From an uncultured Dehalococcoidaceae bacterium (GTDB lineage: Bacteria; Chloroflexota; Dehalococcoidia; Dehalococcoidales; RBG-16-60-22): 60,759 bases of DNA. Made by a program: the position numbers and the translations under genes. Below the pieces are notes generated by a model. It was given only the letters and a program-made list of their open reading frames with translations. It was not told the DNA's origin and did not search any database. This document shows, one piece after another, positions 17,410-58,569 of this stretch (the first letter of the stretch is position 1; each line of letters begins with the position of its first letter). The stretch spans positions 1-60,759 of the forward strand of contig CAZJGR010000002.1 of assembly GCA_964545815.1 (NCBI GenBank). The letters run 5' to 3'.

Positions 17410-18704
17410 CTTTCATCAACTAACTGCTTTTTGACTGTTGCGATCGCGGCCGCAACACGAGGAGGATTGACGTCTGTCCCATACTGTTCGATATGCCACC
17501 TGCGGACCAACCGCTGCGAGCATTCTCCCGACGTCTGTAACTGCGCCTTGATAAAGGCTAACATCTCACTTTCAGCGATTGCACCAGGCCGACCAGGCCC
17601 GGGCATCGCCAAGACCTCCCGCAGTTCCTTTTCATCGCCCGAACCTGACCCCGGCTCCTTAACCGCGTGACATTCGACCCGCAAGCCGGCCTGCCTGCGC
17701 CCTGTCTGCCTGACAGGCAGGAGGCAGGCAAGATCGCTTTCGTGAACCAGAGCAGCCTTGAAGCGTGTTTTCTGCCCCTGGTGGACGACTAGCATGTCGC
17801 CCAACCCCAGGAGCCTTTCAGCGTTCGAACCCGGCACGCCTAGAGCGATAGAAGCTTCTGCCGCCGAGTTGACTGCCCCGCTGATCCGGACCGGAAAGTT
17901 AGCTCGCATAAGACCGGCCACAACATCGGCGGATGGCCTCTGCGTCGCAATAATGCAATGTATGCCGGCCTCACGCCCACGCTGCACCAGGCGAGCCAGA
18001 CCCACCTCGACAGGATGACCTCCTACCATGACGAGGTCCGCCACCTCGTCCACGAACAGATACAACGCAGGACGATTGAACCCCTGCCTATCCCGCCGCT
18101 CCAGAGTTTGCAGCAAATGTGTCAGAAGCCCTGTAGCCGACTGCGCATCCTTGCAGCAATCCTCCACCCCCCGCAAACTTGACAGCCCGGCCAACTTGCG
18201 GCCCTTGGGGTCCACGAGGAGAAACCTGGCGTCCTGGACTTTTGACCACAAGACCAGAGAAACCAGCATGGTACACAGAAGCTCTGTCTTCCCTGAGCCT
18301 GTCATGCCGCTTACCAAAGCGTGCGCTGCCGTTGGACTGGACATACACAACAAAAGAGGTACACCTCGATTTGACAGGCCCAGGAGCGCGCTTTGCCCAG
18401 GAGGAGCGCTTTTGAACCGGGTGATTACCTGGTTGAAGGGCACCGAAACCCCATCACTACGGGGGACCTCGATGATCACCCCATCGGGCTGGCTGTTGAC
18501 AATAATTTTAGGGACTTGAAGGGACAACGCAATCTCACGATTAAGACCTTCCAGCTCTCGAACCCGCCGCCCTCGGCCCAACTGAACACGATAGCAAACC
18601 ACCTGCGGCAAGATCTCCCCACCCAGGATGCGAACTGCTATCCCGTAGTCTTTGAGAACCTCTTCGAGTCGGTTTGACTGTAGCTCCAAAAGCCTTCTAT
18701 CCAT
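17394..18704 (-). CDS. soluble FtsK/SpoIIIE/TraB-like dsDNA translocase
   Basis: GMTGSGKTE Walker A, LFVDEVADL Walker B, IIATQRPSADVV, LLGLGDMLV. No TM segment. A ~100-aa C-terminal domain follows an in-frame palindromic element. Confidence 0.9.
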   Translation of the reverse strand: MDRRLLELQSNRLEEVLKDYGIAVRILGGEILPQVVCYRVQLGRGRRVRELEGLNREIALSLQVPKIIVNSQPDGVIIEVPRSDGVSVPFNQVITRFKSAPPGQSALLGLSNRGVPLLLCMSSPTAAHALVSGMTGSGKTELLCTMLVSLVLWSKVQDARFLLVDPKGRKLAGLSSLRGVEDCCKDAQSATGLLTHLLQTLERRDRQGFNRPALYLFVDEVADLVMVGGHPVEVGLARLVQRGREAGIHCIIATQRPSADVVAGLMRANFPVRISGAVNSAAEASIALGVPGSNAERLLGLGDMLVVHQGQKTRFKAALVHESDLACLLPVRQTGRRQAGLRVECHAVKEPGSGSGDEKELREVLAMPGPGRPGAIAESEMLAFIKAQLQTSGECSQRLVRRWHIEQYGTDVNPPRVAAAIATVKKQLVDESLDLS

Positions 18705-24417: not shown

Positions 24418-25455
24418 ATGACCTGGAAACCGTTCCTGGCCCTGCCCAATTATTTTGGAGGGAAACGCCGTCTGGCTCCTACCATATTCAAAGAGATAGC
24501 CGGCATTTACCCGGCCAGAACCTGGCCAGACCTGACCCTCCTGGACCCATTCGCGGGAGCTTGTAGCCTGGCTCTTTACGCCAAGGCCCAGGGGATGCGA
24601 GTTATCTGCGGCGATGCGGCCGAACGCTCTTATATCATTCAGCGGGCATTCATCGCTAATGATACCGAAACCTTAACAGAAGAAGACCAATCGCTGGTTT
24701 TTCAGAAGCGTAATGCGTATAACCACTTTGCCTGTAACGCCCTGGTGCCTAACCACTTCCCGGCCGCCTTCGCCGACTTTCTGGATCTGGCTATGGCTAA
24801 CCTGGCCGACCACTCATCGCTAACCAGACAGGCCCTCTTGAAAGTCGTTGTGTATAAGGCCATGCTGGGGCCGGTCATCCATCATGGCATTACCTGTCTA
24901 TCCAGGGCCGCCGATAGCGACAACCTGGAAAGCCTGACCTGGCATAATGCTAAACGCATCGAACCCTGGTGGCTAACCCCGCCTCCGTTGATTGTACGCC
25001 GTCTAGCCAGAGCTATAAACAAAGCCGTCTTTGCCAACGGCTACGATAACCTGGTCCACCAGACCGACGCCCTGAACCTGGTAAGCGAGTTTGCAGACCA
25101 GGCAGACATTTTGTACCTGGACCCGCCATACCCCGAGGTAACCGGGTACGAAACCTATTGGGTCATCGATTCGGTTCTGGCTGGCAAGCTGATCAGACAG
25201 GACATCTCGCCCTGGAGCAGTGCTTCACAATTTACTGCTCACCTGCACCAACTACTGGAGCAAGCCGAAACGGTCCCGCTCTGGCTAATCAGCTACGGTA
25301 ATGTGGGGACTACCCTGGCCTACTTGCTAGAGGTTGTCCGGTCTCATCGCCCGGGAGCTCGAGCTGTCACCGTTGCCTTTCCTCACTTACAGGCCCTGGC
25401 CCGCACCGATGTAAGCGACGCAAATAAGGAGTTTTTGATTATTGGTGCCAAATGA
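24418..25455 (+). CDS. N6-adenine DNA methyltransferase, Dam/D12-class-like (copy 1)
   Basis: NYFGGKRRL, DPFAGACS (motif I), LYLDPPYP (motif IV). Confidence 0.85.
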   Translation: MTWKPFLALPNYFGGKRRLAPTIFKEIAGIYPARTWPDLTLLDPFAGACSLALYAKAQGMRVICGDAAERSYIIQRAFIANDTETLTEEDQSLVFQKRNAYNHFACNALVPNHFPAAFADFLDLAMANLADHSSLTRQALLKVVVYKAMLGPVIHHGITCLSRAADSDNLESLTWHNAKRIEPWWLTPPPLIVRRLARAINKAVFANGYDNLVHQTDALNLVSEFADQADILYLDPPYPEVTGYETYWVIDSVLAGKLIRQDISPWSSASQFTAHLHQLLEQAETVPLWLISYGNVGTTLAYLLEVVRSHRPGARAVTVAFPHLQALARTDVSDANKEFLIIGAK

Positions 25456-26133: not shown

Positions 26134-26781
26134 ATGGCACAATCCGACTCGGCTATACTAGCCACCCCTGCCAGCCCGAATGGGGTAACGACCCTCGGCC
26201 CGTCAAAGAGCAACGGTAACGGCAACCTGAAAGCTCCACCGCCGCAGGAGGTACACGGAGTCATTCTCTACCACTCCGACCCCGCCATCGATGACCGTAT
26301 AAGAGAGGTCCGGTCGCTGCGGGAGGAATACGGCTTTGACGTGTCCTATATCGCTCAGGCCGTTAGAGTGTCGCGCGCCCAGGCGTTTGCCTACCTGAAA
26401 CAAATCAGGCTGGCCCGCAAAGCGTATATGGCCGCGTTTCCCGAAGACTTTATCTCCGGCATGGAAGCGATGGTTACAGCCATCGAACAACGGCGGGAAA
26501 TGGACACCATGCTGCGGCGGGAACTTGGCAAGTCCTCCGGCGATAACAATCCGTCAAACCGAGTCGGATTGTACAAACTGATCATGAGAAACATGCGGGA
26601 GTTGGAGGAACTCTGCGGCCTTTTGGTTAACCGCATTGAGCACGGCGGGGAAATCGCTATAAATGACATGAAGACCGCCCTGGACCAGGCTCCCGCCCCA
26701 CTACGGGAGGCCTACCTTGACGCTCTCGCAGCTGTGGTTCATGCAACAGCACCAGCAGCTAACCAGGGACCAGGCAGTTGA
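26134..26781 (+). CDS. terS: putative terminase small subunit
   Basis: Position directly upstream of and overlapping TerL. HTH-like GFDVSYIAQAVRVSRAQAFAYLKQ plus a helical C-terminal half. Confidence 0.55.
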   Translation: MAQSDSAILATPASPNGVTTLGPSKSNGNGNLKAPPPQEVHGVILYHSDPAIDDRIREVRSLREEYGFDVSYIAQAVRVSRAQAFAYLKQIRLARKAYMAAFPEDFISGMEAMVTAIEQRREMDTMLRRELGKSSGDNNPSNRVGLYKLIMRNMRELEELCGLLVNRIEHGGEIAINDMKTALDQAPAPLREAYLDALAAVVHATAPAANQGPGS

Positions 26782-28474
26782 CCTGCTGGCTTATTACGGC
26801 CATTCGCGCCCGGTAAGCTTACTGGCCTGGGCCCTGACCTATCGCGCCCTGGACGGCCACCCCTTCACCCTGGATAAATACCCGTCCAGTGTAGCACTTT
26901 ACAAAGACGAAGCCCCCTTTATCGTCGTAGAGAAACCTAACCAGGTAGGAATTTCAGAGTGGCTTATCAATACCGCCCTCCATGCGCTGGATATGGGGGC
27001 GGGCTATTTCGGGATTGAACACCTGAAAAAAAGCCTGAACGTAGGCTACATTTTTCCTACCTGGATAGCCCTGCGGGATTTTTCCAAAGACCGCGTCCGA
27101 AGAATCGCTCTGGAAACCGGGTATCTGTCCGCCCTCTTGGCGCCGGTGCGAAAGGCCGGCTCCCTGCGACGGGAAAGCGACCTGGGGCTGTACTTCATAC
27201 GAGCAAGCGCACTTTACCTGCGAGGCGCGCACCGGCCCGATGAACAATTGGCCTCCTTTCCCGTAGACATCCTCCTGGTGGACGAGTACGACCTGATCAC
27301 TCTGCGGGCCATCGCCCTGGCCGAGAAGAGGTTGAGGGCCTCCCCCCTCCGGCTGAAACGATACATCTCCAAGCCGACCTTGCCTAATATGGGGGTTGAT
27401 AAACTCTACCAGGAGAGCGACCAGCACCAATGGGAAATCCGGTGTCCCACCTGCGGGGACTGGCAACCGCCCGATTTTTGGGACAACGTGTTCCTGGTGG
27501 ATAGGGGGAAAAAGCTACCTTATGCAGAGTGGTCGAAACGGGACCGCAACGACCTCCTGCAAAGCTGTTTTGAGTTTGCCTGCCGCCGTTGCCAGACGCC
27601 CCTGCACCATATCAGTCCTGGCCGCTGGCAACCCCAAAACCAGGGAGCGCCGATCAGGGGCTATCGTATCCCTGGCCTGGTCAGCCCTTACGTTCCTTTA
27701 ATAGAGATAGTTAAGGGCAGCCTGGCCGAGGAGCCGGACATCCTCCTGGAATGGTACAGAGCTGACCTGGGCCTGCCCAAAGCCCCGGAGGGCGGGCAGC
27801 TAAAGTGGGACGATCTCCAGGCTTGCCAATCCGCCGACTGCCACCTGCAGCAGAGAGCCCACCGTTGCACCATGGGTGTAGACATCGGAGTCAATCTCCA
27901 TGTCCGCGTGAGTTCGTACCAAAAGGGAACCTGGCAAACCGTCTGGATAGGAGAGGTAGACGAGTTCGAGCAGCTAGACGAACTCATGACCCGCTATGAA
28001 GTCCGGGCCGCGGTCATCGATGCCCTACCCGAAACCCGGTCGAGTAGAAATTTTTGCCTGCGCTGGCCGGGACGAGCCTGGATGGCCTACTACTCTGACA
28101 CCCAAAAAGAGGTCTATGTCTGGAAAGACCCGCCAGAGGGAGAACGACACAGAGAGGCGGGCAAGGTGCTAATCACCCGCACCGAGGCGATGGACCGCGT
28201 GGCCGCCAACCACCGGGAGGGGAAGGACGTCCTCCCGCTTGAGGCCCATGCCGTCCCAGGGTTTTTCAGACACCTGTGCGCGCCGGTGCGCGTAATGACC
28301 ACCAGAACCAAAACGGATGGAACCCACTACAGTGTAGCCGTCTACCTGGAGAGCGGACCGGACCACTACTATCATGCCAGCGTTTACGAGCTGGCGGCCA
28401 GGGAGCGACTCAAGCCGGCATTGCTGAACCTGACGGCCGGCATAACCACTGAGCAATCCGCCTTTGAGGTCTGA
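26717..28474 (+). CDS. terL: terminase large subunit (lambda GpA-like)
   Basis: EKPNQVGISE (Walker A-like), ILLVDEYD (Walker B), CPTCG...CRRCQ Zn-finger as in the GpA family. TTG 26717 behind GGGAGG (alternative ATG 26741). Confidence 0.8.
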   Translation: MTLSQLWFMQQHQQLTRDQAVDLLAYYGHSRPVSLLAWALTYRALDGHPFTLDKYPSSVALYKDEAPFIVVEKPNQVGISEWLINTALHALDMGAGYFGIEHLKKSLNVGYIFPTWIALRDFSKDRVRRIALETGYLSALLAPVRKAGSLRRESDLGLYFIRASALYLRGAHRPDEQLASFPVDILLVDEYDLITLRAIALAEKRLRASPLRLKRYISKPTLPNMGVDKLYQESDQHQWEIRCPTCGDWQPPDFWDNVFLVDRGKKLPYAEWSKRDRNDLLQSCFEFACRRCQTPLHHISPGRWQPQNQGAPIRGYRIPGLVSPYVPLIEIVKGSLAEEPDILLEWYRADLGLPKAPEGGQLKWDDLQACQSADCHLQQRAHRCTMGVDIGVNLHVRVSSYQKGTWQTVWIGEVDEFEQLDELMTRYEVRAAVIDALPETRSSRNFCLRWPGRAWMAYYSDTQKEVYVWKDPPEGERHREAGKVLITRTEAMDRVAANHREGKDVLPLEAHAVPGFFRHLCAPVRVMTTRTKTDGTHYSVAVYLESGPDHYYHASVYELAARERLKPALLNLTAGITTEQSAFEV

Positions 28475-28497: not shown

Positions 28498-29556
28498 ATG
28501 ACCTGGAAACCTTTTTCAGCCCTGCCTAACTACTATGGTGGGAAGCGCCGCCTGGTCCCTGTTATATTTCGGGAAATCGCCAGAATCTACCCGCCCCGAA
28601 CCTGGCCGGGCCTGACCCTTCTGGACCCCTTCATGGGCGCGGGCAGTGTTAGTCTGTACGCCAAAGCCCAGGGATTCAATGTCCTGGCCAATGACTACGC
28701 CTGGCGCTGCTACCAAATCGGACAGGGCATCATCGAGAACAATGGCCGTACCCTGACTGACGAAGACCTGAGTTTGCTTTTACGGGAGGCAGGAGGTTAT
28801 GACCACTTTGTGGAAAACCACTATGTGCCTCACACCTTCTCTCCCAGGCTGGCGCGTGAACTGGACCTCGCCCTGGCCAATATCAGACAGGAAGAGAGAG
28901 AGGAACACCACGACGCGCTTTTGTATGCTACCCTGATTCGATTGATGCTGATCAACCGCATCGGCGGCCAGATGACTAACCGGGCCTGGATGACCAATAT
29001 CTCCACCGGCAACTTTGATGCCCTGACGCCGGGCCAGACCTCGACTCGCGGAGGATGGACTCAATCCCTGGCCCAACGCTTGCGCACCTTGCAGACCTAT
29101 ATTAACCGGGCGATCTTCGCCGGCCGCGCCCAAGTTTTCCAGGAGGACGCTTTCGCCTGGCTCCCTGAACAGCAGGGGGACATCGTTTACCTGGACCCGC
29201 CTTACAGCGGCTCGACCGCGTATGAAAGCACCTACTACCACCTGGATTGCATCCTGGCCGGTCGTAAATTGCCCTATTCAGGCCCCAGCCCGTTTAATAG
29301 ACCGGCCACGGCCTGGAACAGCCTGTGCGCCATGTTTGCCGTCGTCGAGCACATCCCTACCTGGATATTTTCATTCGCCGACCAGGTAGGAGCGTTCACG
29401 GCTCAACAGTTATGCGATCTTATTGCCCAATTCGGGCGCAAACCCCGAGTTGTGCCTTTACGCCATCAGTGGTCCATGAACATGGCCGGTGACCATTACG
29501 ACACCGGAGCCAAAGAACTTCTGATCATCGCTCCTGCCTGCCTACCTAATAGGTAG
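28498..29556 (+). CDS. N6-adenine DNA methyltransferase, Dam/D12-class-like (copy 2, paralog of 24418..25455)
   Basis: NYYGGKRRL, DPFMGAGS, VYLDPPYS. The first ~60 residues are near-identical to copy 1. The C-terminal PACLPNR-stop is encoded by a palindromic element. Confidence 0.85.
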   Translation: MTWKPFSALPNYYGGKRRLVPVIFREIARIYPPRTWPGLTLLDPFMGAGSVSLYAKAQGFNVLANDYAWRCYQIGQGIIENNGRTLTDEDLSLLLREAGGYDHFVENHYVPHTFSPRLARELDLALANIRQEEREEHHDALLYATLIRLMLINRIGGQMTNRAWMTNISTGNFDALTPGQTSTRGGWTQSLAQRLRTLQTYINRAIFAGRAQVFQEDAFAWLPEQQGDIVYLDPPYSGSTAYESTYYHLDCILAGRKLPYSGPSPFNRPATAWNSLCAMFAVVEHIPTWIFSFADQVGAFTAQQLCDLIAQFGRKPRVVPLRHQWSMNMAGDHYDTGAKELLIIAPACLPNR

Positions 29557-29582: not shown

Positions 29583-31733
29583 ATGGCCGAAGAAGACAAA
29601 AAAATCCTTCAAGAATTTGGGGTATCTCAGGCCGCAATCTGGGCGCTCAGCGGTGAGGAGATTGAAACCGAAGCCGCCCTGCAGGGGACTCAGGGCATCG
29701 CTACCTGGGATGAAATGCGCCGCACAGACCACAACGCAGCCGCTATCATCGCCGGCCTGACCCTGCCCATCCGCCGCGCCTCCTGGACCGTAGAACCAAC
29801 CAGCGAAGAAGATATTGACCAGGAAGCCGCCGAGTTCCTGGAACAGGCTATGGAGGATATGTCTGTCTCCTGGAGCTCAATGATCGTTGATGCCCTGACT
29901 TTTTTCCCGTTTGGTTGGGCCTTCCTGGAACAGGTCATGAAGCGCCGGGACGGCCCAAACCCTGCCGGAAAAGACGCCGCGGCCAGCAAGTACAGCGACG
30001 GCCGCATTGGCTGGCGCAAGATCACCCTCCGGCCGCAGACGTCGCTCGCCTATTGGGTGATAGATGAAAGCGGTGGCATCCAGGGCCTGGCCCAAACCGT
30101 ACCCAAACAGCAAGAGCCGGTCCGCATTCCAATTCAACGCGCCCTGCTGTTCAGAACTACCACTGAGGGCAATTACCCCGAAGGGGTATCCATCTTCAGG
30201 CCCTCCTGGCGACCCTGGCTGCACAGGAAACGCCTGGAGATGGTGGAGGGCATGGCCCTCACCCGCAACCTGGCGGGAATCCTGAAGGTCACCCTCGGGC
30301 CTGGAGCTTCGACCATTCAGGACTCGGGGCAGGAGTCTGACGAGGGCAAAGCCCGGCAGCTAATCAAGGATGCTTATAATGACCGCCTGGTGGGTGCCGT
30401 GGAAACGGAAGCGGTCAAGATCGGTATCCTGGAGGGGCCGAAAGGCACTGACTTTGACGCCCTGACGGCGGCCATCACCCGCAAAGATCACGAGATGGCC
30501 CGCGCCACCCTGGCCCATTTCATTGTCCTGGCCCTCCAGGAACGAGGCAGCTACAGCCTGGCCAAAGACGAATCGGACCTGTTCCTGATGGCCGTCATGG
30601 CCTACCTGGATGCCATGACCGATGTCATCCAGCGATTCGCGGTCGACCGCCTCTTCAGATTAAATATCTTCCCTGGCCTGACTGCGATCCCACAAATACG
30701 GGCCTCGGCCGTCTACAAGCCTGACATCGGAGCAGTGGCCACGGCGGTTAACGATCTGGCCCAGGCCCAAGTCCTGACCATAGACGATAGCCTGGAAGCC
30801 TATATTCGGAGCGTGGCCGGTTTCCCTGAACTGCCGGTGGACATGACCCGCGCCGAACAGGCCAAGAAGAAAGAAGCGATACCAACGAGAAAAACCCCCT
30901 CTTGGGGTGAAGAAGATATAACCGAAAGCATACCCGATGAAGACCTGGAAACCGTCCTGGAGAGCATGGCCAATTACCTGCCTCGCCGTCAGGCAGGTGA
31001 CCCGCTGGCCGGACCGCCACCCAGACTCGGCAAGAAAGCCCGAACCTATAGAGACTCTACCAAACAGTATGAAGCTGACCTGCAGCAAATTTATCGGGAG
31101 TGGGCAGCCGAAGCCGGAGATCTCGACGTCGGCCCCGATACCACCGAGGTCGACCTGGGCGACAAACTGGACGATTACCTGGGAGTCGGCCTTCTCCTCC
31201 TGATGGAGAAAGGCTATCAAGACCTCCTGGCCGCCTACCTGTTAGGCTTTGGCGCCCCCTCGATCGGACCGGAGGGCCTGAAGCTGATCGAGAGCGCTCA
31301 GCAAAAAAATGATACCTACCTGGCCGGGTCTTTGTTTAAGGACATCCGGGGCAAGCTGGACGGCGAGATAGCGGCTATTCTACTACTGCTGAAACAGGGC
31401 CGTGAAGACGACGCTTTCCAGTTAATAGAACGGACCATCCTGACACTGGACTACCGCCTACCGTACTACGGGGGCACTTATTGGGAAATGATCCATGAGG
31501 GCATCGGGATGCGCATCACCGAACGCGGCACAGTTATCGGCCCTCCCGTCCTGCGTTATCTGGACCCCCTGGCCAGACACTGCACCACCTGCCCGCCCAA
31601 GGCCAAACAATACCCATCCTGGGAGGCCATGGTCGCCGAGGCCGGAATTCCGGGCGATGGCTCGGACGAATGTGACGGAAACTGCCGCTGTGGATTCATG
31701 ATCCTATCCCAAGGAGCCTGGATATGGCCTTGA
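29583..31733 (+). CDS. portal protein with C-terminal Cys-rich (MuF/SPP1 gp7-like?) extension
   Basis: Size and position after TerL. C-terminal HCTTCPP...DECDGNCRCGF. Confidence 0.65.
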   Translation: MAEEDKKILQEFGVSQAAIWALSGEEIETEAALQGTQGIATWDEMRRTDHNAAAIIAGLTLPIRRASWTVEPTSEEDIDQEAAEFLEQAMEDMSVSWSSMIVDALTFFPFGWAFLEQVMKRRDGPNPAGKDAAASKYSDGRIGWRKITLRPQTSLAYWVIDESGGIQGLAQTVPKQQEPVRIPIQRALLFRTTTEGNYPEGVSIFRPSWRPWLHRKRLEMVEGMALTRNLAGILKVTLGPGASTIQDSGQESDEGKARQLIKDAYNDRLVGAVETEAVKIGILEGPKGTDFDALTAAITRKDHEMARATLAHFIVLALQERGSYSLAKDESDLFLMAVMAYLDAMTDVIQRFAVDRLFRLNIFPGLTAIPQIRASAVYKPDIGAVATAVNDLAQAQVLTIDDSLEAYIRSVAGFPELPVDMTRAEQAKKKEAIPTRKTPSWGEEDITESIPDEDLETVLESMANYLPRRQAGDPLAGPPPRLGKKARTYRDSTKQYEADLQQIYREWAAEAGDLDVGPDTTEVDLGDKLDDYLGVGLLLLMEKGYQDLLAAYLLGFGAPSIGPEGLKLIESAQQKNDTYLAGSLFKDIRGKLDGEIAAILLLLKQGREDDAFQLIERTILTLDYRLPYYGGTYWEMIHEGIGMRITERGTVIGPPVLRYLDPLARHCTTCPPKAKQYPSWEAMVAEAGIPGDGSDECDGNCRCGFMILSQGAWIWP

Positions 31734-32194
31734 GAGTTACAACCGGCATACCGCCGATATTCATCGTCACTTCACAGCTCAAGGATTATGCTTGCAGGGA
31801 TGACAGGGGAAGCCTTTACCCCATTTTGCCCACCACGACCAGAGAGGAGTTGTATTGTACCAAATGCCAGTATTATCAGAACGGCATGAGGCAGGCCGGC
31901 TGCCTATTTGTGCCCTCGTGGGAAGAGCCGTCTATGGCCGCCCGCCGCAAACGGAGGCAGTCCGAGACCGCTGAAAAGCGACGGGCCGCCTTGCGTTCTG
32001 CCGGCCGCAATGCCGGAGGCGGGCAGCTTAAGCGGACCTGCTGGAATTGCGTAGAGATACGGCACGCCACAAATGGCGGCTACACCTGTCCATTTTTGCC
32101 GGCGCCGTGTACGCGCTCGGCGGGTTCGATGCAGCAACACCAGGGCTGCGAAATGTTTGCCTGGCGGACCGAAGAAATTCTGCCCTTGTCCTAA
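31724..32194 (+). CDS. Cys-rich hypothetical protein (156 aa)
   Basis: ATG overlaps the portal stop. CTKCQ...CWNC...C motifs and a basic central stretch. Confidence 0.55.
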   Translation: MALRVTTGIPPIFIVTSQLKDYACRDDRGSLYPILPTTTREELYCTKCQYYQNGMRQAGCLFVPSWEEPSMAARRKRRQSETAEKRRAALRSAGRNAGGGQLKRTCWNCVEIRHATNGGYTCPFLPAPCTRSAGSMQQHQGCEMFAWRTEEILPLS

Positions 32195-32218: not shown

Positions 32219-33883
32219 ATGCCATACAAGACGATTGAGGAAGCCAATCCCGCCCTGCGCGGTATTGAGCCGCCCATTACCCTGGAACAGGCCAACATGA
32301 TCGCGGCCTGGGCCGATAAGATCGAGGCCAAGGGCCAGGACGCCAATCCCTGGGCCGTGGCTATAAGCCTGTTCAAAAAGACTCACCATGTGGAAGAGGA
32401 CAAGTGGGTCAAGAACGAGGGGAGCGAGGCCGAATTTAGCGCCTTCCTGAGAGGCCAGGAGGAACCCGACCAACCTTATATCGTAGACCTCCTGTCCGCT
32501 CTGCCCTCTGATAAGAGCGGCAAGCCCGACTTCTCCCAGCCCTTCCGCATCCTGCCGGTGGGCGACATCCACCGGATGGGCCGGCGACAGGTAACTCCTC
32601 AAACCATTGAAGAGTTCGCCCAAAATTGGCTCAACAGGGAGAAACGGGGCATCCGCCGCAAGCGAGTGGTCATTGATGCCGAACACCAGACCGGTGGCAT
32701 CGGCTGGTACACGGCCATCTTCAGCCGCGGTCAAGACGGCCTGTGGGCTACCATTGCCCTGAGCAATGCCGGAGAAAAGCTCCTGGCCGAGCGGGACTTT
32801 TCCTTTTTCTCCCCCGCCGTGGCCTGGCAAATAGAGGATGCCGTTACCGGAGAGATTGTCAGGAACCAGATAGTCGGAGGCGCATTGACCAACTACCCCG
32901 TCCTGGGCGACGCTACCCGCCTGCCCGTTATGGGCTATTCCTGGCGCTACACAGCACCGGCCGGCCGGGATGATCAAGACAAGTATGCCGCCACCAAAGC
33001 TGAAGGGGATGGTGACTACCCCGCCGAAGCTTATCTGGTTGTAGAGGACCCTGAGAAACCGACTACCTGGCATCTCAGAGTTAAGGAGCGAGTCAACGGC
33101 AAGCTCGAATACACCGCTAATATGTGCGGTAAGGCCGCCGCCGCCCTCGGCCCGAAGGGATTCCGGGGGCAACAGGTACAGCTTTCCGAGGAGGACCGCG
33201 CCGCCGCCAAGAAGAAGCTCCTGGCCATTTACCGCAATGAACTTAAGGTTGAGGATGACCAAATCCCCAAACAACTATTTTCGGAGAAAGGAGATGACGA
33301 CATGACAGTGGAATTCAGCGAACAGGAAAGAGGCCTCCTGCGCCAACTGGTTACCGGCCTGGGCAATCTGTTAAAAGGCCAGGAGAAGAAACCGGACGTG
33401 GAACTGCCGGAGGAGTTCACGGCCATGCAGGGCCTGGTCGAGCAGCTTAAGGCCAAAGTCGAAACGTTGGGCACGGAGAAGACCGCCCTGCAGCAACAGG
33501 TCGCGGCCGAAACTTATGCCCGCCAGTTGCAGGAAATGAGGGGCTTTGTCCAGATGTTCTCCCACCTGCCGCTGCCGGTGGAGTTGCCCAAGGACGCTCC
33601 GGCCGGAAGCATGACGACCCAGGAGCACCTGCTATGGCTGCGTGACTCGGACAGCACCGAAGGGAAAAAGCACTGGGCCTTTTTTGCCGCCCTGCTGGCC
33701 ACCCTGGAGAACACCCTGAAGGAAGTGGCCCTCTATGGCGAGTTAGGCGCTTCTTCCGGTGCACCGGCCAGCCCCGATGCCGCGCTGGACCTCCTGGCGC
33801 AGAAGTATGCCACCGATCACAAAGTGCCTTACCTCGAGGCGCTCAAGGCCGTGGCGGCCACCAGCCCACGCCAGGCGGCCTGA
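32219..33883 (+). CDS. putative prohead protease-scaffold protein (Mu gpI-like N-terminal half, coiled-coil C-terminal half)
   Basis: FRILPVGDIHRMGRRQVTPQTIEEF...VVIDAEHQ recalls Mu-like prophage protein I. Lies between portal and capsid. GGGAGG SD. Confidence 0.55.
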   Translation: MPYKTIEEANPALRGIEPPITLEQANMIAAWADKIEAKGQDANPWAVAISLFKKTHHVEEDKWVKNEGSEAEFSAFLRGQEEPDQPYIVDLLSALPSDKSGKPDFSQPFRILPVGDIHRMGRRQVTPQTIEEFAQNWLNREKRGIRRKRVVIDAEHQTGGIGWYTAIFSRGQDGLWATIALSNAGEKLLAERDFSFFSPAVAWQIEDAVTGEIVRNQIVGGALTNYPVLGDATRLPVMGYSWRYTAPAGRDDQDKYAATKAEGDGDYPAEAYLVVEDPEKPTTWHLRVKERVNGKLEYTANMCGKAAAALGPKGFRGQQVQLSEEDRAAAKKKLLAIYRNELKVEDDQIPKQLFSEKGDDDMTVEFSEQERGLLRQLVTGLGNLLKGQEKKPDVELPEEFTAMQGLVEQLKAKVETLGTEKTALQQQVAAETYARQLQEMRGFVQMFSHLPLPVELPKDAPAGSMTTQEHLLWLRDSDSTEGKKHWAFFAALLATLENTLKEVALYGELGASSGAPASPDAALDLLAQKYATDHKVPYLEALKAVAATSPRQAA

Positions 33884-34373: not shown

Positions 34374-35372
34374 ATGCCGCAATATGAGACCGTGCATGTA
34401 AAAACCACCCTGTCTAATGTGGCCCTGGCTTACTTTCAAACGGAGGCCGGGTTCATTGCAGACAAGGTGTCCCCACCTGTGAAGGTGGCCAAAGGAAGTG
34501 ACTATTATTTCGTCTTTGGCCGTGAGCACTTCCGGGTGGTAGATGCTGTCCGCCGACCCATGACGACCCCGGTCGAGATTGAGCATACCGTCTCGACCGA
34601 CCAGTATGTCTGCCAGGAGTATGCCATGCGGGAGGCAATCGCGGACGAGGAGATTGAGGCCGCCGATTCGCCCATTGAACCGGAAGCCGATGCCGCTCTC
34701 TATACCTCGGAGCGTCTACGCCTCTCGAGGGAATCCCGCATCGCTACCCAGTTGACCACTGCTGCCAACTATGACGCCACGATGCGGACGACCCTGGTGG
34801 GCGATGACCAATGGAACGAGTACACCACCTCCGACCCGATCGGGGTCATCCAGACGGGGATTGATGCTGTCGCCGCCAAGGGCAAACGGCCCAACACCCT
34901 GTGGCTCGGCTACGAGGTCTGGAGCAAGTTAAAGCACCACCCAGACTTCATCGCCCGCCTGCCGGACCAGCAAACCCGCATCGTAACTCCCAAACTCCTG
35001 CAGACGATATGGGAGGAAATCACCCAGGTTTGCATCGGCGAAGCGCTTTATGATACCTCCGTCGAGGGCCAGACCGAAAGCCTGGGCTACGTTTGGGGCA
35101 AGTACTGTGGCATCTGCTACGTGAACAACGTCATGCCCAACAAGAAAGTGCCCAGCTTCAACTACTCGTTTATCTGGCCGTACAAAGCGGCCCAGGGACG
35201 GGTGCGTGCCGAGAACCAGCCGGGCGCAGCCAACGGCGTGATCTACCAGGCCAGGACCTACCGCCATGCGGACGAAGGCGCCCGCGCTACCTGGGTAGAG
35301 GTGGGCCTGCGAGAAGGATTCAAGATCACCGGCGCCCTGATGGGCTATCTGATCTCGGCTGCCGTGGCGTAA
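34374..35372 (+). CDS. major capsid protein (lambda gpE-like family)
   Basis: 332 aa. N-terminal ...LSNVALAYFQTEAGFIADKVSPPVKV... pattern and position. AAAGGAG SD. Confidence 0.8.
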   Translation: MPQYETVHVKTTLSNVALAYFQTEAGFIADKVSPPVKVAKGSDYYFVFGREHFRVVDAVRRPMTTPVEIEHTVSTDQYVCQEYAMREAIADEEIEAADSPIEPEADAALYTSERLRLSRESRIATQLTTAANYDATMRTTLVGDDQWNEYTTSDPIGVIQTGIDAVAAKGKRPNTLWLGYEVWSKLKHHPDFIARLPDQQTRIVTPKLLQTIWEEITQVCIGEALYDTSVEGQTESLGYVWGKYCGICYVNNVMPNKKVPSFNYSFIWPYKAAQGRVRAENQPGAANGVIYQARTYRHADEGARATWVEVGLREGFKITGALMGYLISAAVA

Positions 35373-35448: not shown

Positions 35449-36315
35449 ATGACCCAAACCAGACTGCGTGATGCTGCGATCATCGCCTGCCTGCTGGCCG
35501 TCTGCGTCCTGGCGTACTTTCACTTTTCCCAACCGCCAAGCCTGCCGGCCTGGGTAGGCGCCAAAGAAGGGCCGATCGCTCACGGTATAGACAAGTTCTA
35601 CAGGTCGGTCTATATCAAAGGCAACGTGGAAACCGCCGGGAGCTCAATCGTAGGAGAGGACCTGACCGTTGGAGGCAACGTCTCGGTGACCGGAGTGATC
35701 ACCGCTGACAGTTGGATTACCCAATCCACCAGCCTGGACCTGACCGGAGGCTTGACGGTTGACGGAGCTACCGTGCTATCAGGCACAACGACTGCCAGCA
35801 GCACCTTGACCGCGCCGACCATCAACGTTACAACCCTGGCCGCAACGACAGGCAATGTCACAACCCTGACTGCGGCCGGGACCACCGTGCTGTCCGGCAC
35901 AACGACTGTCAGCAGCACCCTGACCGCGCCTACGGCCAACATTACAACCCTGGCTATATCAGGTAATGAGACCGTGGCCGGCAATGCAACCATCACCGGC
36001 AATACCCTGCTGACAGGGACGTTGAGCCTGTCAGAGGCCACCGGGACCATTACCACCACCGGGACCTTGACACCGACTGCCAGTTTCTATGAACTGAGTC
36101 CGGCGCCCCACGTTGCCAGCGAAATCACTATCACCCTGTCGGCCTGCACCCAACCGGGGCAGTTGTTGTCACTGTACGACGTCACGACCCCGACTATAAA
36201 CATTCCCGATGACAACCTGTTGCCCGGGTCCCTGTTTACCATGACTCAATACGAAAGCGCGGTGCTGCTCTGCAACGGCACAGGATGGGTTAAAGTTGTC
36301 CTTCCCACGCCCTAG
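35449..36315 (+). CDS. TM-anchored Thr/Gly-rich beta-helix-like repeat protein
   Basis: N-terminal AAIIACLLAVCVLAYF. Repeated LSGTTT(A/V)SSTLTAPT(I/A)N(V/I)TTLA units. Confidence 0.7.
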   Translation: MTQTRLRDAAIIACLLAVCVLAYFHFSQPPSLPAWVGAKEGPIAHGIDKFYRSVYIKGNVETAGSSIVGEDLTVGGNVSVTGVITADSWITQSTSLDLTGGLTVDGATVLSGTTTASSTLTAPTINVTTLAATTGNVTTLTAAGTTVLSGTTTVSSTLTAPTANITTLAISGNETVAGNATITGNTLLTGTLSLSEATGTITTTGTLTPTASFYELSPAPHVASEITITLSACTQPGQLLSLYDVTTPTINIPDDNLLPGSLFTMTQYESAVLLCNGTGWVKVVLPTP

Positions 36316-36877
36316 CACTAACCGCATCGTTGCAATGCTGCAGGGGGACCGCTTTGTCTACTGTTCCCAGGCCTGGCAACGAGTCGCGGCCCTGATAGCC
36401 ATGCGCATCCCGATTACCTGCCCGCCCGTAACCGCGGCCACGTTCAGGCCGCAGTGGATGGCCGGTAAGAAAGTGCTGATCTTTAAGCTCCACGGTTATC
36501 CTGACCACCCGGACTGGTTCGGCCTGGATAACCAGGGGGAGCGCCACGAGGCCCTGACACCGGCCCTGGTAGAATGCGCCGACCTGACCGGCGCTATCGT
36601 TATCGCGCTGGTTTGCTACAGCCTGCGAAGCCCCATGTCGGCGGCTTTTTTCAGAGCAGGTGCAAAAGCCTTCTTTGGCGCCCCGGGAGAGCTGCGGGCC
36701 AGAGAAACCAAACCCGGGGAAGCGGACAACCTGGCAATCCATCTCCTGCGCACCTTGAGAAGCGCACCACTTGACCAGGCCCTGGCCCTGGCCAAGGAGC
36801 GTTTTGGCCAGAAACCTGACTTGAGCGAACATGACCGCTACACGTTGGACACCTTTGGAGGAAGCTATGCGGTATAA
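36296..36877 (+). CDS. minimal CHAT/caspase-like domain protein (start uncertain: TTG 36296 or ATG 36335)
   Basis: KVLIFKLHGYPD...LTPALVECADLTGAIVIALVCYS...AAFFRAGAKAFFGAPGEL...AIHLLRTL...LDQALALAKERF follows the His-Gly ... Cys ... aGA pattern of CHAT domains. Confidence 0.55.
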   Translation: MSFPRPSTNRIVAMLQGDRFVYCSQAWQRVAALIAMRIPITCPPVTAATFRPQWMAGKKVLIFKLHGYPDHPDWFGLDNQGERHEALTPALVECADLTGAIVIALVCYSLRSPMSAAFFRAGAKAFFGAPGELRARETKPGEADNLAIHLLRTLRSAPLDQALALAKERFGQKPDLSEHDRYTLDTFGGSYAV

Positions 36878-37178
36878 GGTACTCGAACCTCTTATCCTAC
36901 ACCGTAAATACTACAGAATCGGCGACGTCATCGAGGCCCCCGAAAGCGACCGGCAAACCTGGACAGACCTGACCGGCCGCGGCCTGGCCGAACCGGTAGA
37001 AGCTGAGGTGCCGCCGGCAATTGCCCCGGGCGAGGAAATAGTGACCCGCCCGCTTCAACCATTACCTTACACCTCCGGGCGACTGCGCCTTTCCGGTCGC
37101 GGCCTGGCCGAACCGGTAGAAGCTGAGGCGCCGCCGTCCACCAGACCCAGGCGTAAGAGGAAGGGACACAACGGATGA
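36867..37178 (+). CDS. hypothetical protein (103 aa) with internal GRGLAEPVEAE(V/A)PP repeat
   Basis: ATG 36867 behind GGAGGAAG. Confidence 0.6.
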   Translation: MRYKVLEPLILHRKYYRIGDVIEAPESDRQTWTDLTGRGLAEPVEAEVPPAIAPGEEIVTRPLQPLPYTSGRLRLSGRGLAEPVEAEAPPSTRPRRKRKGHNG

Positions 37179-41514: not shown

Positions 41515-44500
41515 ATGCCTAGCGATTCCTATGTTTTCCGAGTAAAACTGGAGGGCGGTGACGCCGTTAAACAGGCCATTGCCATCCGCAAGGAAGTCGA
41601 GAAAGAACTCGGCCAGGCGGCCGGCTTTGATCTGGGCGGCATTGAGACCGCTACCGGACAGCTGAAGGAACTGGCTGCGTCCGCTCGCGGTGTTGGACGG
41701 GCCATGACCGCCGGATTCAGGGAGTCGGTTAATCTCCTCCTGACCGATATCGGCACGCTACAACAGCAAGTCAACCAGGTAGTTCGCGCCGGGACCGGCC
41801 CCGTCGAGGAGGCCATGAAGGAACTCGGCGTGGTTGGCCTCGATGCCCTGAACATCGTAGATACCGGCTCGACCCAAGCCACGCAGAAAATGGCCCGCCT
41901 GACCACCGAAATCAAGGGTGCCCAGGCGCAGATTCAGGCCCTACAAACCCGCATGGCTCAACTCGGCGCCCAACCCATGGTCGTCCCCGGATCTCTGAGT
42001 GGCGAAGTCAAAACAGTTGGAGCTTTGTTTAAGGAGCTAACCACCAGCCGCTGGCAAGAAGTCCGCCGTATGTTTAGAGCGGCCAAAGAGGAGCTGGCCC
42101 CCCTGCGGGCCGAAATCGAGGCTCAGGCCGAAGCCCTCCGCACCCAAACCGCCCCCGCTTATGCCGCCGCCAAATCCGAAGTCGACCAACTGGCCGCCGC
42201 TCAAGATAAGCTGATCGAGGAACAAGCTCAGTATCAGCGTGCTCAACAAGAATTGGGAAGAAGCCTGCGCATCGCGCCCCGCTACAAGGAACTCAGCGCC
42301 GAAATCAAGCTCTACGGCGAGGCGATTATAGCTGCCACAGATAACCTGACCGCACTCCGGTCCATCATGGTCACCGGAGGCATGACCGAAGAACAGGCCG
42401 AATTGGCCGCCAAAGAGAAACAGTATGCCCAGAGCCTGGAACAAAGCACCGTCTGGTGGAAAGTCCTGACCGAAAGCGCCGGAGAACATAGCAAGGCCGT
42501 CGAATATGTAGCACTCAGTGACGAGAACGCAGCCAAAGCCCTGCGCGGGATGTTGGAGGCGTACGAGCAAATCAGCAAATTGCAGACCGGCATCAGCAGG
42601 GGCATCGGCACAATGGGCCGCCTGGGAGAAAAGGTCGAACTACCGGCCGCCGCCGAAGGGACCCTGGCTACATTTGTCATCGCCGAAAGGCAGTTAGGTA
42701 CAGATACCCGACTGGCCAGCGATGAACTACTCAGGCAGAAAAGAGAACTTGTCGGATTGACCAAGGCCCTGGACGAAGCCGCCCTGGCCGCCCAAGGGCT
42801 GGACAAGGTCCAGCGCGCCGCCGTCTCTCGCGTCCAGGCTATCGGTATCAGGGAAGTCAAGACGGCCACCCCCCTGCGTGGCCGGACCGTAGAGGAAGCC
42901 GGAGCCACCCTAACACCCGTTCTGGCGCAGATTATGGCGCAGACCGAGGCCATCAAAAAAGGTGCCCTTGTCGAGCTGGACCGCCTCGAACAAGAGGGCA
43001 TCAAGCGGCAACCCTTTGGCTTCCTGATCCGCTTTGCTCAAAAAGCCCGCGCCGTTATCGTCGGCGAATCCATCATCCCCGATATGGTCACCGCCATCAA
43101 TGAGTGGCTGGCCAAAATCGGACTCGAAAACCCCTTCCAACCCCTCGCCATACAGGCCAACCAGGCCGGAGCCATGATCCAAACCGGCCTGCAGGAACGC
43201 CTCTCTGCTATCAATACCGACCAGGCCGAACAAGAACTGAAGGACCTCCGCGCCGAACTGCAGCGCACCGCCAACGCCATCGAAAGCCAGCTGGTTGTAA
43301 CCGGCGAAGCCTCACAATCCTACAAGATGGCTTATGCCGGCTATGCCGCCGAAGTGAAACGGGTCAGAGGAGAAGACCCGACCGCCATGGGCCTGCTGGC
43401 CCAGGGTAAGGCCCTGAAGGGAACCGGCGTCCGTGGCGAATTCAATGAACTCGCAATCATTGACGAGGGTTACCAGGCGATAAAGACCACCGTGGAGGAG
43501 CGCCAACGATTCAGCCAGGAAGAAACGGCCAAACTCCTCGAACTGGAGCACCGTTACTCGGCCATGCGACAGGTAGAACTCTCACTCGATCAGGAACTGG
43601 CCCAACGTAAGGTCACGGCCCTGAAACTGGCAATGGAACAGGCCTTTGAGACCGGCGACTTTGACCAGTTCGAGGCCCTGACCAAAGAGGCCGTGGCCGA
43701 AGACGAGCGCCTGGGTGAGATACAAAAGGAGTTGGCTTACCAGCGAGAGTCCGTTACCGGTTACGCTATGGAAGCCGCCGAGGAACAGCTGGCCCAATCC
43801 AAAGCCCTGGCCAAACGGACCATCCCCGTCGCTGCCCCTGCCGCCGCTGTAGGTACGGCCGTGGCCGGCGAAATGATCATGCCTCACATCACCGCAACCC
43901 AGGTCAAGAACGTCGAGAGCTATGCTGCAGCCATCAGAGACCTGGGACAGGCCATGACCGAGACCCGCCGTGTACTCCCCATCATCACGGAGGCCGAGCA
44001 AGAACGGGCCGTCGCGGCCGCTAAAGCCGTCGCTGAAGTCGAAGAGGCCGAGAAACGCCGCACTGTCGCCGCCCAAAAGACCCTCGTCGAGACCGAGGCC
44101 ATTGAACAGCGCCTGACCGCAACCCGGGCATCTCACCTCCGGGTCAGAGAGGAAGCTATTCGCCTCAGCGCCGCCTTTGAATTGGAAGCTCTACGGCAAA
44201 CAGCTATCGGCATGGAGGGAGAAGAAACCCGCAAGACGGCCGAAGTCCAGCACCATGCCCGCGTGCGAGAAATCGCCGTCGAGAAGGGAGCAGACCTGGA
44301 AGTCCAGGCCTCCCGCCGCAAGACCATCGCCGTCTCGGCCGAGGAGCGCCGCTTACTCCAGGAACAACGCTCCCAACAGCGCCTGCGAGAGATGGCCGTC
44401 AAAGCCTCCATCCAGGTCACGATGGAGCAGGAGAAACGGAAAACCCTCGCCCTGTCCGAGGAAGAGCGACGGCGCACTATCGCTCAGCAGGGAGAACTTA

Positions 44501-47500
44501 ATGACCGGGTCTCCAATGAGAAGAAGGCCATCCAGCAGACAACCGCGGCTGCGGCCGCGGGTGGACGTGGCGTCGGACCCACCGCGGCCGATATCGCCCG
44601 CTACGGCGGTGGAGGATTAGGAACCCTGTCCTGGGCCGTCCAGGAAGCCCAAAGCGCACAAATGGGCATCAGAATGTTATCCTACGACATTCAGTATATG
44701 TCCCGCTCGCTGCTCATGGCCGGTGCGGCTATGACCGGCCCGCCCATCCTGGCCATGAAGCGCTTTAACGACTATACCGCCACCACCAACCGCGCCGCGC
44801 GGGCCATGGGCCTGGCCCGTTCAGAGAGCGATTACTTGCGAGGAGCGATCATTGACCAGAGCCGCGCTATGGCCCTGGTCCGCCCCGAAGAAATGGCGCA
44901 GGGATTGTACCTGTGGGCCACCGGCGTGGGCGCCGCCGCCAAGAACCAGGCCCAGTTGAGGGACGTCATAGCCCAAACCATCCCCATCCAAAAATTGGCT
45001 TACATGCAGCAGATTGAGCTACCGGCTGCCGTTACCGCTGTAGCCGGCATCATGGCCGAATTCAGGATGGAATCCACCGAAACCGAGCGAGTTGTCTCCG
45101 TCCTGGACTCGACCGCCGACCGAACCTTTGCCACCGTTGACGACCTGGCTGAAGCCTTCAAATTTGTCGGCCCCATTGCCCACGACCTGGGCATCTCGAT
45201 GGAAGAGGTCGCCGGTGTGTTTGGCCTCCTGGCCGACGCCAATATCCGGGGGAGCATGGCCGGCCGCGCTTTTCGCCAGATGACCATCTCGTTCACCAAG
45301 ACCTCGGCCGAAGAAGACGAGGTCCTGAACCGCCTCCTGCGCCGCAATGTAGAGTTGGGAGAGACCTGGAGAGACCTCGTTTTCCCCAACGGCAAGTTTA
45401 TCGGCCTGACCCGCTACATAGACCTCCTGGCGGCCGCCACCGAAGACTTGACCGACCAGGAACGCGCCCAGACATTCGCCACCCTGTCCACCGCTAACGA
45501 ATTGCCCGTCCTGACCGCTTTGGTCTCTAAACAGATTGCGGCCAGGGAAAAAGGTATCAACGTCATCCGCGCCGAAGCCAACCAGACCATGGGGGTCATC
45601 GATAGCGAGGTGCGCGCCTACGCTATGTGGGAGAAAGAAACCACCGGCAACTATCGCACCCTGGAAGGCGCCCAGGAGTCCTTCAACCGCAAATTCACCG
45701 ATGCCACCGAGAGCGAGAACTACCAGATTAAAAAACTGCAAGTCCAGTGGGATGCTGCCATGCTCTCCCTGGGCCAGAGCACAATGGAGCTGGCTCTGCC
45801 CTACCTGGATGACCTGGGGCAGACCATAGATACCCTGACCAAATACCTGACAGAGAATCCGTGGGTGGTTACGGCCCTGCTGGCGGCCGGGGCAACCCTG
45901 ACCACTATCGGAGTTCTAGGCTCAACTGTAGGAACCCTCCTGCGAGTGGCAACGGCCATGCGGCAACTGGGCACAATGAAACGCCTCCTGGATGCCGCCC
46001 ATGCGGCCGCTGCTGTCCAACAGGCCGCAGCAGCCGCTGCCGCTGCCACCACCGAAGGTGCCGCCGTCGCGGCCGCAGCCACGACCGAAACCGCTGCCGT
46101 CGCGGCCGGGGCAACCGAAGAAGCCGCCGCCCTGGCTGCCGGTGTAACCGATGAAGGTGCGGCCCTGATTGCCGGGGCAACCGAAGAAGCCGCTGCCCTG
46201 GCTGCCGGTGTAACCGCCGAAGGTGCGGCTATAACTGCCGGCATAACCACCGAAGCCGCGGCCCTGACTGCTGCAGCCACGACCGAAGCTGCAGCCATAA
46301 CCGCTGCGGCCACGACTGAGGCGGGGGCCGTAACTGCCGCCGCCACAACTACAGCCGGTGCCACGACAGCCGGAGGCATCCTGTCAGGTATATTGGGTAC
46401 GGCCGGGACTATCCTGTCTGGCGCAGCCGCCGTCCTGGCCGGTGTAGGTCTGACAGTCGGCGGCCTTTTGGTCGGTTTCCTGGGCGCTACCGGCCTGGTA
46501 GACCTCCTCCGCCTGGCCAAAGGCGAAGAACTCCTCGGCCCGTTGGAGTCCCTCAATCTTTTGTGGGATTCCATACGAGGGAGTATTGCCCTGACCGTTG
46601 GCACAGGGGGCGGTATAGCTTCCTGGATCATGGGAGAAGATGCCGTCGAACAGGCTGAAGCCTTTGACCGCGCCGCCTTCGAAGCTGCCAAGACCCTGGG
46701 GCTGATCGACAAAAACCTGCAATGGATAGACCAGAACACACAAGCCGTAACCGCCTCGGTCGAGGAATTGCCTGCCGATACCGAAGCCTGGCGTAAGGAA
46801 CTGCGGGACGGTGGCGACGATATGGAGAACATGAAGAAGCAAACCGAACGCGCCGCCGACGAAGCCCGCCGCCTGGGGGATAACCTGGAACAACTTCCGG
46901 CCCTGACCGGCCTGGGCCTGGCTGCCTTCAGCGAAGCCGAGCTACAGGCCATTGACGAATTGGAGGATTACCTAAAACGGCGTAACGAAATGGTCGAAGA
47001 TCAGAATGAGGACCTGGCCAAGATGGCCCGGGGCTATGCCAAAGAGGATAGAGATGCTGAAGCGAAATACCTGGCCGACCGCGCCAAGCTGGAAGCCGAA
47101 CTCGGAGCGGTGCAGGAGGAACCTCTGTGGAGAACCGGCGAGGAGGCACAGCGTGCGGCCAAGGCAGAAGCCAAAGCACTCAAGGACTACCAGCAGAGCG
47201 TGGAAAGAGCCACCGCAGATCACCTGAAGAAGCTGGCCGATATGGCCCTCGACCATGATGATAAAATGGAGGATCTCGAGGCGGCCAGGGATGCCAAGGG
47301 TATCATCCAGGAACAACGGCGCTATAGCCGCCAGGTCAGGGATGAAGAAGACCAGTTCGGTGAGCAATTGACCGACCTCCAAACCCGCCTGGAGGAAACC
47401 CGGCAGGAAGAAAGAACTAAGCTGGAGGAAACCCGCCAGGAACGGCGAAAAGACCTCCAGGACAAGCTGGCCGAATTGGACGCCACGTATGCCCAGGAGA

Positions 47501-58564: not shown

Positions 58565-58569
58565 GATTG

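Follow-up and report, generated by a model that had tools for sequence, protein, structure and literature searches.

The stretch analysed here, a window of 60,759 nt covering positions 1 to 60,759 of contig CAZJGR010000002.1 (assembly GCA_964545815.1, from an uncultured Dehalococcoidaceae bacterium), is a tailed-phage genome. Two overlapping genes on the + strand of its head module are the subject of this report. The upstream gene (35449-36315) encodes a polymorphic spike- or fibre-like protein of 288 aa, referred to below as the partner. Its 3' end overlaps by 20 nt the start of the second gene (36296-36877), which encodes a predicted miniature cysteine peptidase, C25-like and of clan CD. The peptidase gene runs from a TTG codon at 36296 to a TAA stop at 36875-36877, giving a product of 193 aa.

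A first-pass annotation of the window had proposed an open reading frame (ORF) of 180-193 aa at this position, with peptides in the order seen in CHAT proteases. All of the quoted peptides are present: IFKLHG (residues 62-67); LTPALVECADLTGAIVIALVCYS (residues 87-109); and also AAFFRAGAKAFFGAPGEL, AIHLLRTL, and LDQALALAKERF. Eleven close homologues share 54-63% identity with the product. Comparison with three homologues shows that differences at codon position 3 are about twice as frequent as those at positions 1 and 2, indicating purifying selection in the + frame. A 180-aa ORF on the opposite strand (36290-36832) was rejected as the true gene on this codon-position pattern, and it therefore is probably an artefact of the 59% G+C content. 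Judged from its sequence, the peptidase ORF is a genuine gene and not a chance reading frame.

The same annotation had flagged the start codon as uncertain, TTG 36296 (193 aa) or ATG 36335 (180 aa). Close homologues lack a Met where the ATG lies, yet they conserve the residues R-(I/V)-V (10-12) upstream of it; the ATG was rejected on this N-terminal conservation. A Shine-Dalgarno-like stretch, AGGATGGG (36282-36289, + strand), lies 6-10 nt before the TTG, and none can be read upstream of the ATG. Because the homologues conserve R-(I/V)-V and AGGATGGG precedes the TTG, codon 36296 is the most likely start.

Fold, dyad, and family of the peptidase

The peptidase was modelled with AlphaFold2 (AF2) on a 12-sequence alignment. 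The model has a mean predicted local distance difference test score (pLDDT) of 77.7 and a predicted template-modelling score of 0.78, and is good from about residue 45 on. Its top Foldseek matches in the PDB all belong to clan CD (probability 1.00; query-normalised template-modelling score, TMq, 0.50-0.59; E values 1.6e-4 to 7e-3). Matched proteins include the Craspase TPR-CHAT protease, SAVED-CHAT, separase, the CHAT domain of DdvA, MALT1, gingipain K, and caspase-4. CHAT proteases and separase (family C50) are the best structural matches (7xsr_C, E 1.6e-4; 8tl0_B, TMq 0.59; and 9hma, 5fc2, and 5mz6), and the top 12 PDB matches include the CHAT structures 7xsr_C, 8tl0_B, 7zoq_A, 7y84_C, and 8rot_A. 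In the viral library BFVD, the model matches proteins of giant viruses that contain caspase domains, as well as an uncharacterised protein from a metagenomic myovirus. On the strength of the model, assignment of the peptidase to the clan-CD (caspase/gingipain) fold is almost certainly correct.

The sequence carries the clan-CD hallmark, a hydrophobic strand before each residue of a His-Cys dyad: VLIFKLH66G, then AIVIALVC107. The codon for His66, the proposed general base (in LIFKLHG), lies at 36491-36493 on the + strand and follows β-strand 60-63 of the model (DSSP); that for Cys107, the proposed nucleophile (in IVIALVCYS), lies at 36614-36616, also on the + strand, and follows β-strand 101-104. 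Both residues are invariant within the close family. Across 163 diverse relatives, His is retained in 161, Cys in 162, and Gly67 in 154; the sole relative without Cys is a 93-aa fragment. Among 81 diverged stand-alone members (alignment A2, 24% mean column identity), Cys is the only invariant column. This degree of conservation suggests that the peptidase probably is catalytically active.

The family is large. A deep profile search covering 1.84 billion representatives, with clusters at 50% identity, retrieved 514 clusters at E ≤ 1e-3, of which 168 reach E ≤ 1e-10; most members are 170-200 aa long. Existing resources do not see it: the peptidase sequence has no match in Pfam, PHROGs, NCBIfam, PADLOC, or PDB sequences, even at permissive thresholds (E ≤ 1 for Pfam), and a PHROG scan of 81 short members returned 0 matches. 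Similarly, tblastn with four family members against 50,697 deposited phage genomes gave no match, and a scan of GTDB genomes for the close family found none. The peptidases form an unannotated family confined to uncultured phages; longer relatives occur in bacteria. That so large a family has no matching model and is absent from deposited phages points to a blind spot in the annotation of uncultured phages.

The long bacterial relatives (360-1028 aa), in which the peptidase domain is C-terminal or internal, provide the sequence link to a characterised peptidase family. Seven of the ten long relatives scanned exceed the gathering threshold of Peptidase_C25 (PF01364), with E values down to 1e-16; for example, P0101 scores 58.4 bits against a cutoff of 23 bits. 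Alignment of the phage family with the long family by hhalign has a probability of 99.9% (E 1.5e-34), and places H66-G67 on an invariant NLHG and C107 on an invariant ACYG of the long, C25-type relatives. The phage family covers only the C-terminal part of the long family (about columns 176-369 of 481), and the peptidase has neither an N-terminal subdomain nor a signal peptide. One long relative lies in an ordinary bacterial chromosomal context.

Many of the long relatives carry N-terminal TPR arrays. In P0052, P0055, P0074, P0085, and P0135 (685-912 aa), a C25-like domain is fused to a long array of this kind. These fusions parallel the TPR-CHAT (Csx29) architecture, yet with a C25-type sequence signature.

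Comparison with gingipain itself is less sharp. The gingipain R segment was checked against 4ief_B and 1cvr_A, in whose chain numbering the relevant residues are His211 and Cys244. When the long-family profile is aligned with this segment, the match is weak (E 0.009): SEACYG falls exactly on DVAC244VNG and the His lies two residues off register, a shift that on the sequences is consistent with a difference in loop length. Direct comparison of the A2 profile with the RgpB segment was uninformative; the same profile had no significant match among PDB sequences (DdvA CHAT domain, E 0.18); and P0101 found nothing in the PDB.

How, then, should the peptidase be classified? The first-pass annotation had called it a minimal CHAT/caspase-like protein, to be borne out by a caspase-hemoglobinase fold and by His and Cys conserved in homologues. 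Fold and residues have both been found, with CHAT domains and separase as the top structural matches, so the caspase-like part of the name stands. The CHAT label does not: the peptidase has no match to Pfam CHAT (PF12770) at E ≤ 1, and only 4 of 81 short members match it weakly (best E 1.1e-3). Weak matches to Peptidase_C25 are found for 3 of the 81 (best E 0.03). Membership in the CHAT family was rejected on the Pfam CHAT result. Through the long relatives, the nearest characterised family by sequence is Peptidase_C25 (gingipain), not CHAT. We therefore classify the peptidase by fold in clan CD and, by sequence, as a distant homologue of C25 in reduced form, with the caspase-like C-terminal subdomain alone and no N-terminal subdomain; judged by the thresholds of the two Pfam models, it is a member of neither CHAT nor C25.

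With the C25 family (gingipains R and K, PorU; PF01364; MEROPS clan CD), the peptidase has in common a His-then-Cys dyad after hydrophobic strands. Motifs common to the peptidase and the long relatives that pass the C25 threshold are HG...W.G, AC, GA.A..GS, and a C-terminal segment resembling ..F..(Y/F)GDP. In contrast, the peptidase has no subdomain A, Ig-like domain, signal peptide, propeptide, or type IX secretion system (T9SS) C-terminal domain; it has 193 aa against a catalytic domain of about 350 aa; and it is cytoplasmic and phage-encoded. From the CHAT side, the Cys strand of the DdvA domain aligns with that of the peptidase family. CHAT proteases usually are fused to, or occur with, sensor or repeat domains such as TPR and SAVED in conflict loci. 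The stand-alone peptidase, however, has no sensor or regulatory domain, and its gene lies in a virion module rather than a defence locus.

Both the fold and the catalytic type of the peptidase are known; what is new is the reduced architecture and the biological setting in which they occur. Caspases, separase, gingipains, and CHAT proteases are not among the known morphogenetic enzymes of phages, and literature searches turned up no account of such a peptidase, whether assigned to clan CD, C25, or CHAT, from the structural module of a phage. At 170-200 aa, the family would rank among the smallest clan-CD catalytic domains and may define the smallest of them, a size that makes it useful in working out the minimal caspase fold and perhaps also as a source of compact, site-specific proteases.

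The upstream partner and its pairing with the peptidase

Partner proteins range from 161 to 683 aa and share an architecture, in order: a short basic N-terminus; a hydrophobic helix of about 20 residues; a Pro/Glu-rich linker; a motif specific to the clade; solenoid repeats; and a C-terminal domain. Upstream genes are homologous across loci (blastp E values 6e-38 to 1e-9, plus hidden Markov model matches). In the phage studied here, the helix (residues 3-27 in the AF2 secondary structure; 35455-35529, + strand) follows the basic N-terminus and is itself followed by the motif EGPIAHGIDKFYRS (residues 40-53). N-terminal alignments of four clades identify the corresponding motifs as GIDKFYR, LGxTHF, ARSYxTxCY, and RxVRERI.

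The repeats are of a Thr/Gly-rich β-solenoid type, vary greatly in length, and match tail-fibre and structural PHROGs weakly. At least three C-terminal domains are interchangeable. The commonest is PF25692 (Phage_depo_C, "phage depolymerase C-terminal beta-sandwich"), which exceeds its gathering threshold in loci L001 and L015. The partner in the window ends in a β-sandwich knob (about residues 200-285, TPTASFY..ITL..C..GQ..QYE..LCNGTGW; 36046-36303, + strand), a moderately confident part of its AF2 model, and this knob is common to L001, L011, L012, and other loci. Foldseek matches of the sandwich, weak and from a low-confidence model, are only suggestive: CBA120 TSP4; a tailspike depolymerase; and the Pa223 capsid spike. 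The weak fold matches of the partner also include a fibre-chaperone complex. A protein search with the partner gave 5 matches, dominated by low-complexity words.

The closest analogue of the partner is the Pa223 capsid spike, gp52. This protein of 295 aa has the same layout: an N-terminal capsid-attachment segment, a triple β-helix, and a C-terminal knob. The Foldseek match (9ny6_C) is weak, with E 4e-3 over about 100 columns of the low-confidence model. The attachment domain of Pa223 is polar whereas that of the partner is a hydrophobic helix, and no associated peptidase has been reported for Pa223.

In several partners, the hydrophobic helix ends in a lipobox-like L-x-[AGS]-C. Such motifs (LVAC, LVSC, LVGC, LIGC, FTAC, and VVGC) are found in the partners of L011 (9192-10001), L012 (810-1472), L014 (near 5500), L018 (4055-5611), L022 (7036-8991), L026 (8255-8956), and L044 (6942-8993). 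They suggest that some of these partners may be exported lipoproteins, instead of or besides virion components.

The pairing of the two genes is close to constant. Wherever the upstream gene was complete among the phage loci sampled, it had the partner architecture. Partner and peptidase genes abut or overlap; the overlap measures 20 nt here and one nucleotide in several other loci. Among close homologues the gene order is kept throughout: portal, Mu-I protease, 138-aa protein, 332-aa capsid protein, variable-length gene, peptidase, small gene, 190-aa gene, and 118-aa gene. Distant members (about 30% identity) occupy the same slot, including those of L012 and of L011, the latter with different head machinery; L011 encodes a Phage_portal/Mu_F protein and an S78 protease, and the studied genome and L001 a Mu-I protease. 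The same arrangement recurs in 22 IMG/VR loci of another subfamily and in two contigs from metagenome-assembled genomes (MAGs), for which the suggested hosts are Anaerolineae and Deltaproteobacteria. Synteny in related phages, which the first-pass annotation had proposed as a check, extends to distant loci as well as close homologues.

The two genes also co-vary. In a neighbour-joining tree, 22 peptidases fall into four clades, which correspond one-to-one with the motif type at the partner N-terminus. C-terminal domain types of the partner, in contrast, are scattered across the peptidase clades, although it is that end of the partner gene that adjoins the peptidase gene. The match between tree and motif fits a functional connection between the peptidase and the N-terminal region of the partner.

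Possible roles of the cassette

The best explanation for these observations, to which we give a probability of about one in two, is that the peptidase is a dedicated processing enzyme for the adjacent spike- or fibre-like protein. The peptidase would be a stand-alone, minimal clan-CD cysteine peptidase, with His66 as general base and Cys107 as nucleophile, and would form with the partner a translationally coupled two-gene cassette. The partner, a polymorphic spike- or fibre-like protein probably mounted on the capsid or virion, would be cleaved site-specifically during late-stage assembly. Cleavage most plausibly would fall in its conserved N-terminal region; for example, removal of the hydrophobic helix might let the mature spike assemble. 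That the neighbouring protein is the substrate or a functional partner of the peptidase is, in our estimate, evenly poised between right and wrong. Specific removal of the N-terminal helix is a more tentative and somewhat doubtful proposal. (In all of this, we infer catalytic activity, substrate identity, and cleavage position.)

The closest functional precedent comes from a different clan. Prp and the phage Cp-1 protease (family C108, clan CR) are small, phage-associated His/Cys proteases that trim the N-terminus of a virion protein (PMC12445089): like the proposed enzyme, each is a cysteine protease that removes the N-terminal extension of a structural protein. They differ from the peptidase in having an unrelated fold, and their substrate is the major capsid protein (and scaffold or L27) rather than a spike-like protein.

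Clan-CD enzymes are site-specific, with the P1 residue driving specificity, and several families of the clan are Arg-specific (PMC12445089). The sole sequence clue to an endopeptidase specificity of this type is a candidate conserved Arg in the partners of two clades. In the ARSY and RERI clades, it lies 6-10 residues past the helix, in contexts such as EEPVAR|SY, EQPEAR|G, EVEPR|G, and EDPEAR|L.

Several observations weigh against a processing role. The candidate Arg is absent from the LGxTHF clade, and in the clade of the studied phage the conserved Arg (DKFYR52) lies about 25 residues past the helix. Should the helix serve as a genuine Sec signal, anchor, or lipoprotein signal, the region downstream of it would be extracytoplasmic and beyond the reach of a peptidase that has no signal. 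The match between peptidase tree and partner motif could reflect vertical inheritance of the N-terminal part together with the peptidase, the knobs alone being swapped. The pairing itself has exceptions: in L041, the small downstream gene comes straight after a partner-like gene (806 aa), and no peptidase gene separates them; and in L045, on a contig binned as a Deltaproteobacteria MAG, a 318-aa ORF (8048-9004) lies between partner and peptidase. AF2 modelled the partner poorly (pLDDT 53.5). Finally, two members retain Cys and have replaced the catalytic His, with Asn in P0092 and with Glu in P0089, and P0092 (L011, 10001-10561) remains in an intact partner-peptidase cassette. From their sequences, these two may be pseudo-enzymes or may use an altered mechanism.

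The first-pass annotation had offered three roles: a second maturation protease, an effector that cleaves a host defence protein, and an inactive scaffold. None of these makes use of the near-constant pairing with the upstream gene, which is the strongest signal that the genomic context offers. The first would make the peptidase an auxiliary prohead protease that cuts capsid, scaffold, cement, or portal proteins. In favour of this, the peptidase gene is located in the head module, where it comes right behind those for capsid and decoration proteins, and cysteine proteases that trim the capsid N-terminus are known in phages (Prp/Cp-1, clan CR; PMC12445089). However, every sufficiently sequenced genome examined already encodes a canonical prohead protease, of varying types, and the peptidase tracks the spike-like gene rather than any particular capsid or protease type. 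It is absent, moreover, from the 50,697 deposited genomes, which include relatives of its capsid protein. An auxiliary role in head maturation is therefore unlikely. In terms of family, the peptidase shows no sequence similarity to canonical prohead proteases (Mu-I, PF10123; S78, PF04586; and others) in Pfam or PHROG.

Much the same holds for a host-directed effector, which might counter defence by cleaving some protein of the host, for instance an immune sensor or effector, perhaps after packaging in the virion. Among solved structures, those nearest to the peptidase are CHAT and caspase-like proteases from conflict systems, and the TPR arrays of the long relatives recall TPR-CHAT. Nevertheless, the peptidase has no PADLOC match; its slot between the partner and connector genes is strictly conserved, which is atypical of counter-defence genes; and its phylogeny follows the N-terminal motif of the partner. 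Together these points make an anti-defence function improbable.

A third alternative accepts the partner as substrate but replaces hydrolysis with ligation. PorU, a sortase of the T9SS, belongs to the C25 family, and several enzymes of clan CD, legumain and GPI8 among them, are natural transpeptidases. The peptidase might accordingly be a caspase/gingipain-clan phage "sortase" that reads a helix-plus-motif signal, cleaves the partner, and joins the spike covalently to a virion component such as a capsid or cement protein. The evidence of fold, dyad, and pairing is the same as for a processing peptidase. In addition, there is the sequence link to C25, and the helix and P/E-rich motif of the partner loosely resemble a sorting signal. 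Ligation and hydrolysis are indistinguishable in the data, however; no acceptor motif was identified; and known sorting signals of this kind are C-terminal, whereas that of the partner is N-terminal. A transpeptidase is, accordingly, quite unlikely, as is the wider proposition that the whole family ligates spikes to capsid or other virion proteins; were it true, it would represent enzymatic decoration of a phage capsid catalysed by a clan-CD enzyme, with the smallest known clan-CD catalytic domain.

Fibre chaperones are often encoded directly behind fibre genes. A non-catalytic chaperone or adaptor, a pseudo-peptidase that binds the spike through its former substrate groove, would agree with a gene directly downstream of a fibre-like gene, with the fibre-chaperone complex among the weak fold matches of the partner, and with the two His-less members, one of them (P0092) in its cassette, but it is very unlikely: a dyad kept almost universally, in an alignment with 24% mean column identity, is difficult to account for unless the protein is catalytic, which also tells against the inactive scaffold, and the likeness to fibre-assembly chaperones (Tfa) is one of gene position only, with no similarity to a known fibre-assembly family in Pfam or PHROG.

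The fixed pairing of the peptidase with a fast-evolving spike- or fibre-like gene suggests that the mounting of host-recognition or decoration proteins on virions includes a step that depends on an enzyme and has so far gone unrecognised. Moreover, the candidate substrate is encoded next door, making the idea directly testable.

The surrounding phage genome

The placement in a head module that the first-pass annotation had assumed is sound, as is its separate protease upstream. A Mu-type portal gene (29583-31733, + strand) encodes 716 aa, with the Portal_Mu match confined to residues 41-401. The Mu-I-type prohead protease gene (32219-33883, + strand; PF10123, E 1.4e-10; phrog_328, and weakly phrog_73) encodes a scaffold-like C-terminus and is the canonical maturation protease of the phage. 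The major capsid protein gene follows (34374-35372, + strand; phrog_1005, E 7e-71; Phage_cap_E weakly), and a cement-like protein also is encoded in the genome.

The C-terminal 300 or so residues of the portal protein end in a Cys-rich segment (CTTCPP...CDGNCRCG). Because its equivalent in L011 is a Phage_portal and Phage_Mu_F fusion, the portal gene may likewise encode a fusion of portal with minor head protein. Between the portal and protease genes lies a Cys-rich ORF of 156 aa (31724-32194, + strand; ...CTKCQYY...CWNC...CPFLPAPC...).

On the downstream side, a small gene resembling phrog_16445 and DUF7210 overlaps the peptidase stop codon (36867-37178, + strand, within ORF 36831-37178). Its likely start is ATG 36867, behind GGAGGAAG at 36857-36864, and the N-termini of its homologues (KYKTLDQH) match from MRYKVLEP. 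The product contains GRGLAEPVEAE[VA]PP twice, followed by a basic tail. No promoter or terminator consensus was found on the + strand between 33.8 and 39.5 kb. Further downstream, a tape-measure-like ORF of 2203 aa (41515-48126, + strand) has in its second half a long Ala/Thr/Glu-rich, low-complexity repeat block (...AAATTEGAAVAAAATTETAAVAAGATEEAAALAAG...).

Upstream of the portal gene, the + strand encodes a gpA-type large terminase (26717-28474) and two D12-class N6-adenine DNA methyltransferases (24418-25455 and 28498-29556), the second of which sits between terminase and portal. The early or leftward region encodes on the − strand an FtsK/SpoIIIE-family ATPase (17394-18704) and an AAA+ ATPase (11219-13000). 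At the right end, an IstB/DnaA-like ATPase is encoded on the + strand (58468-59358).

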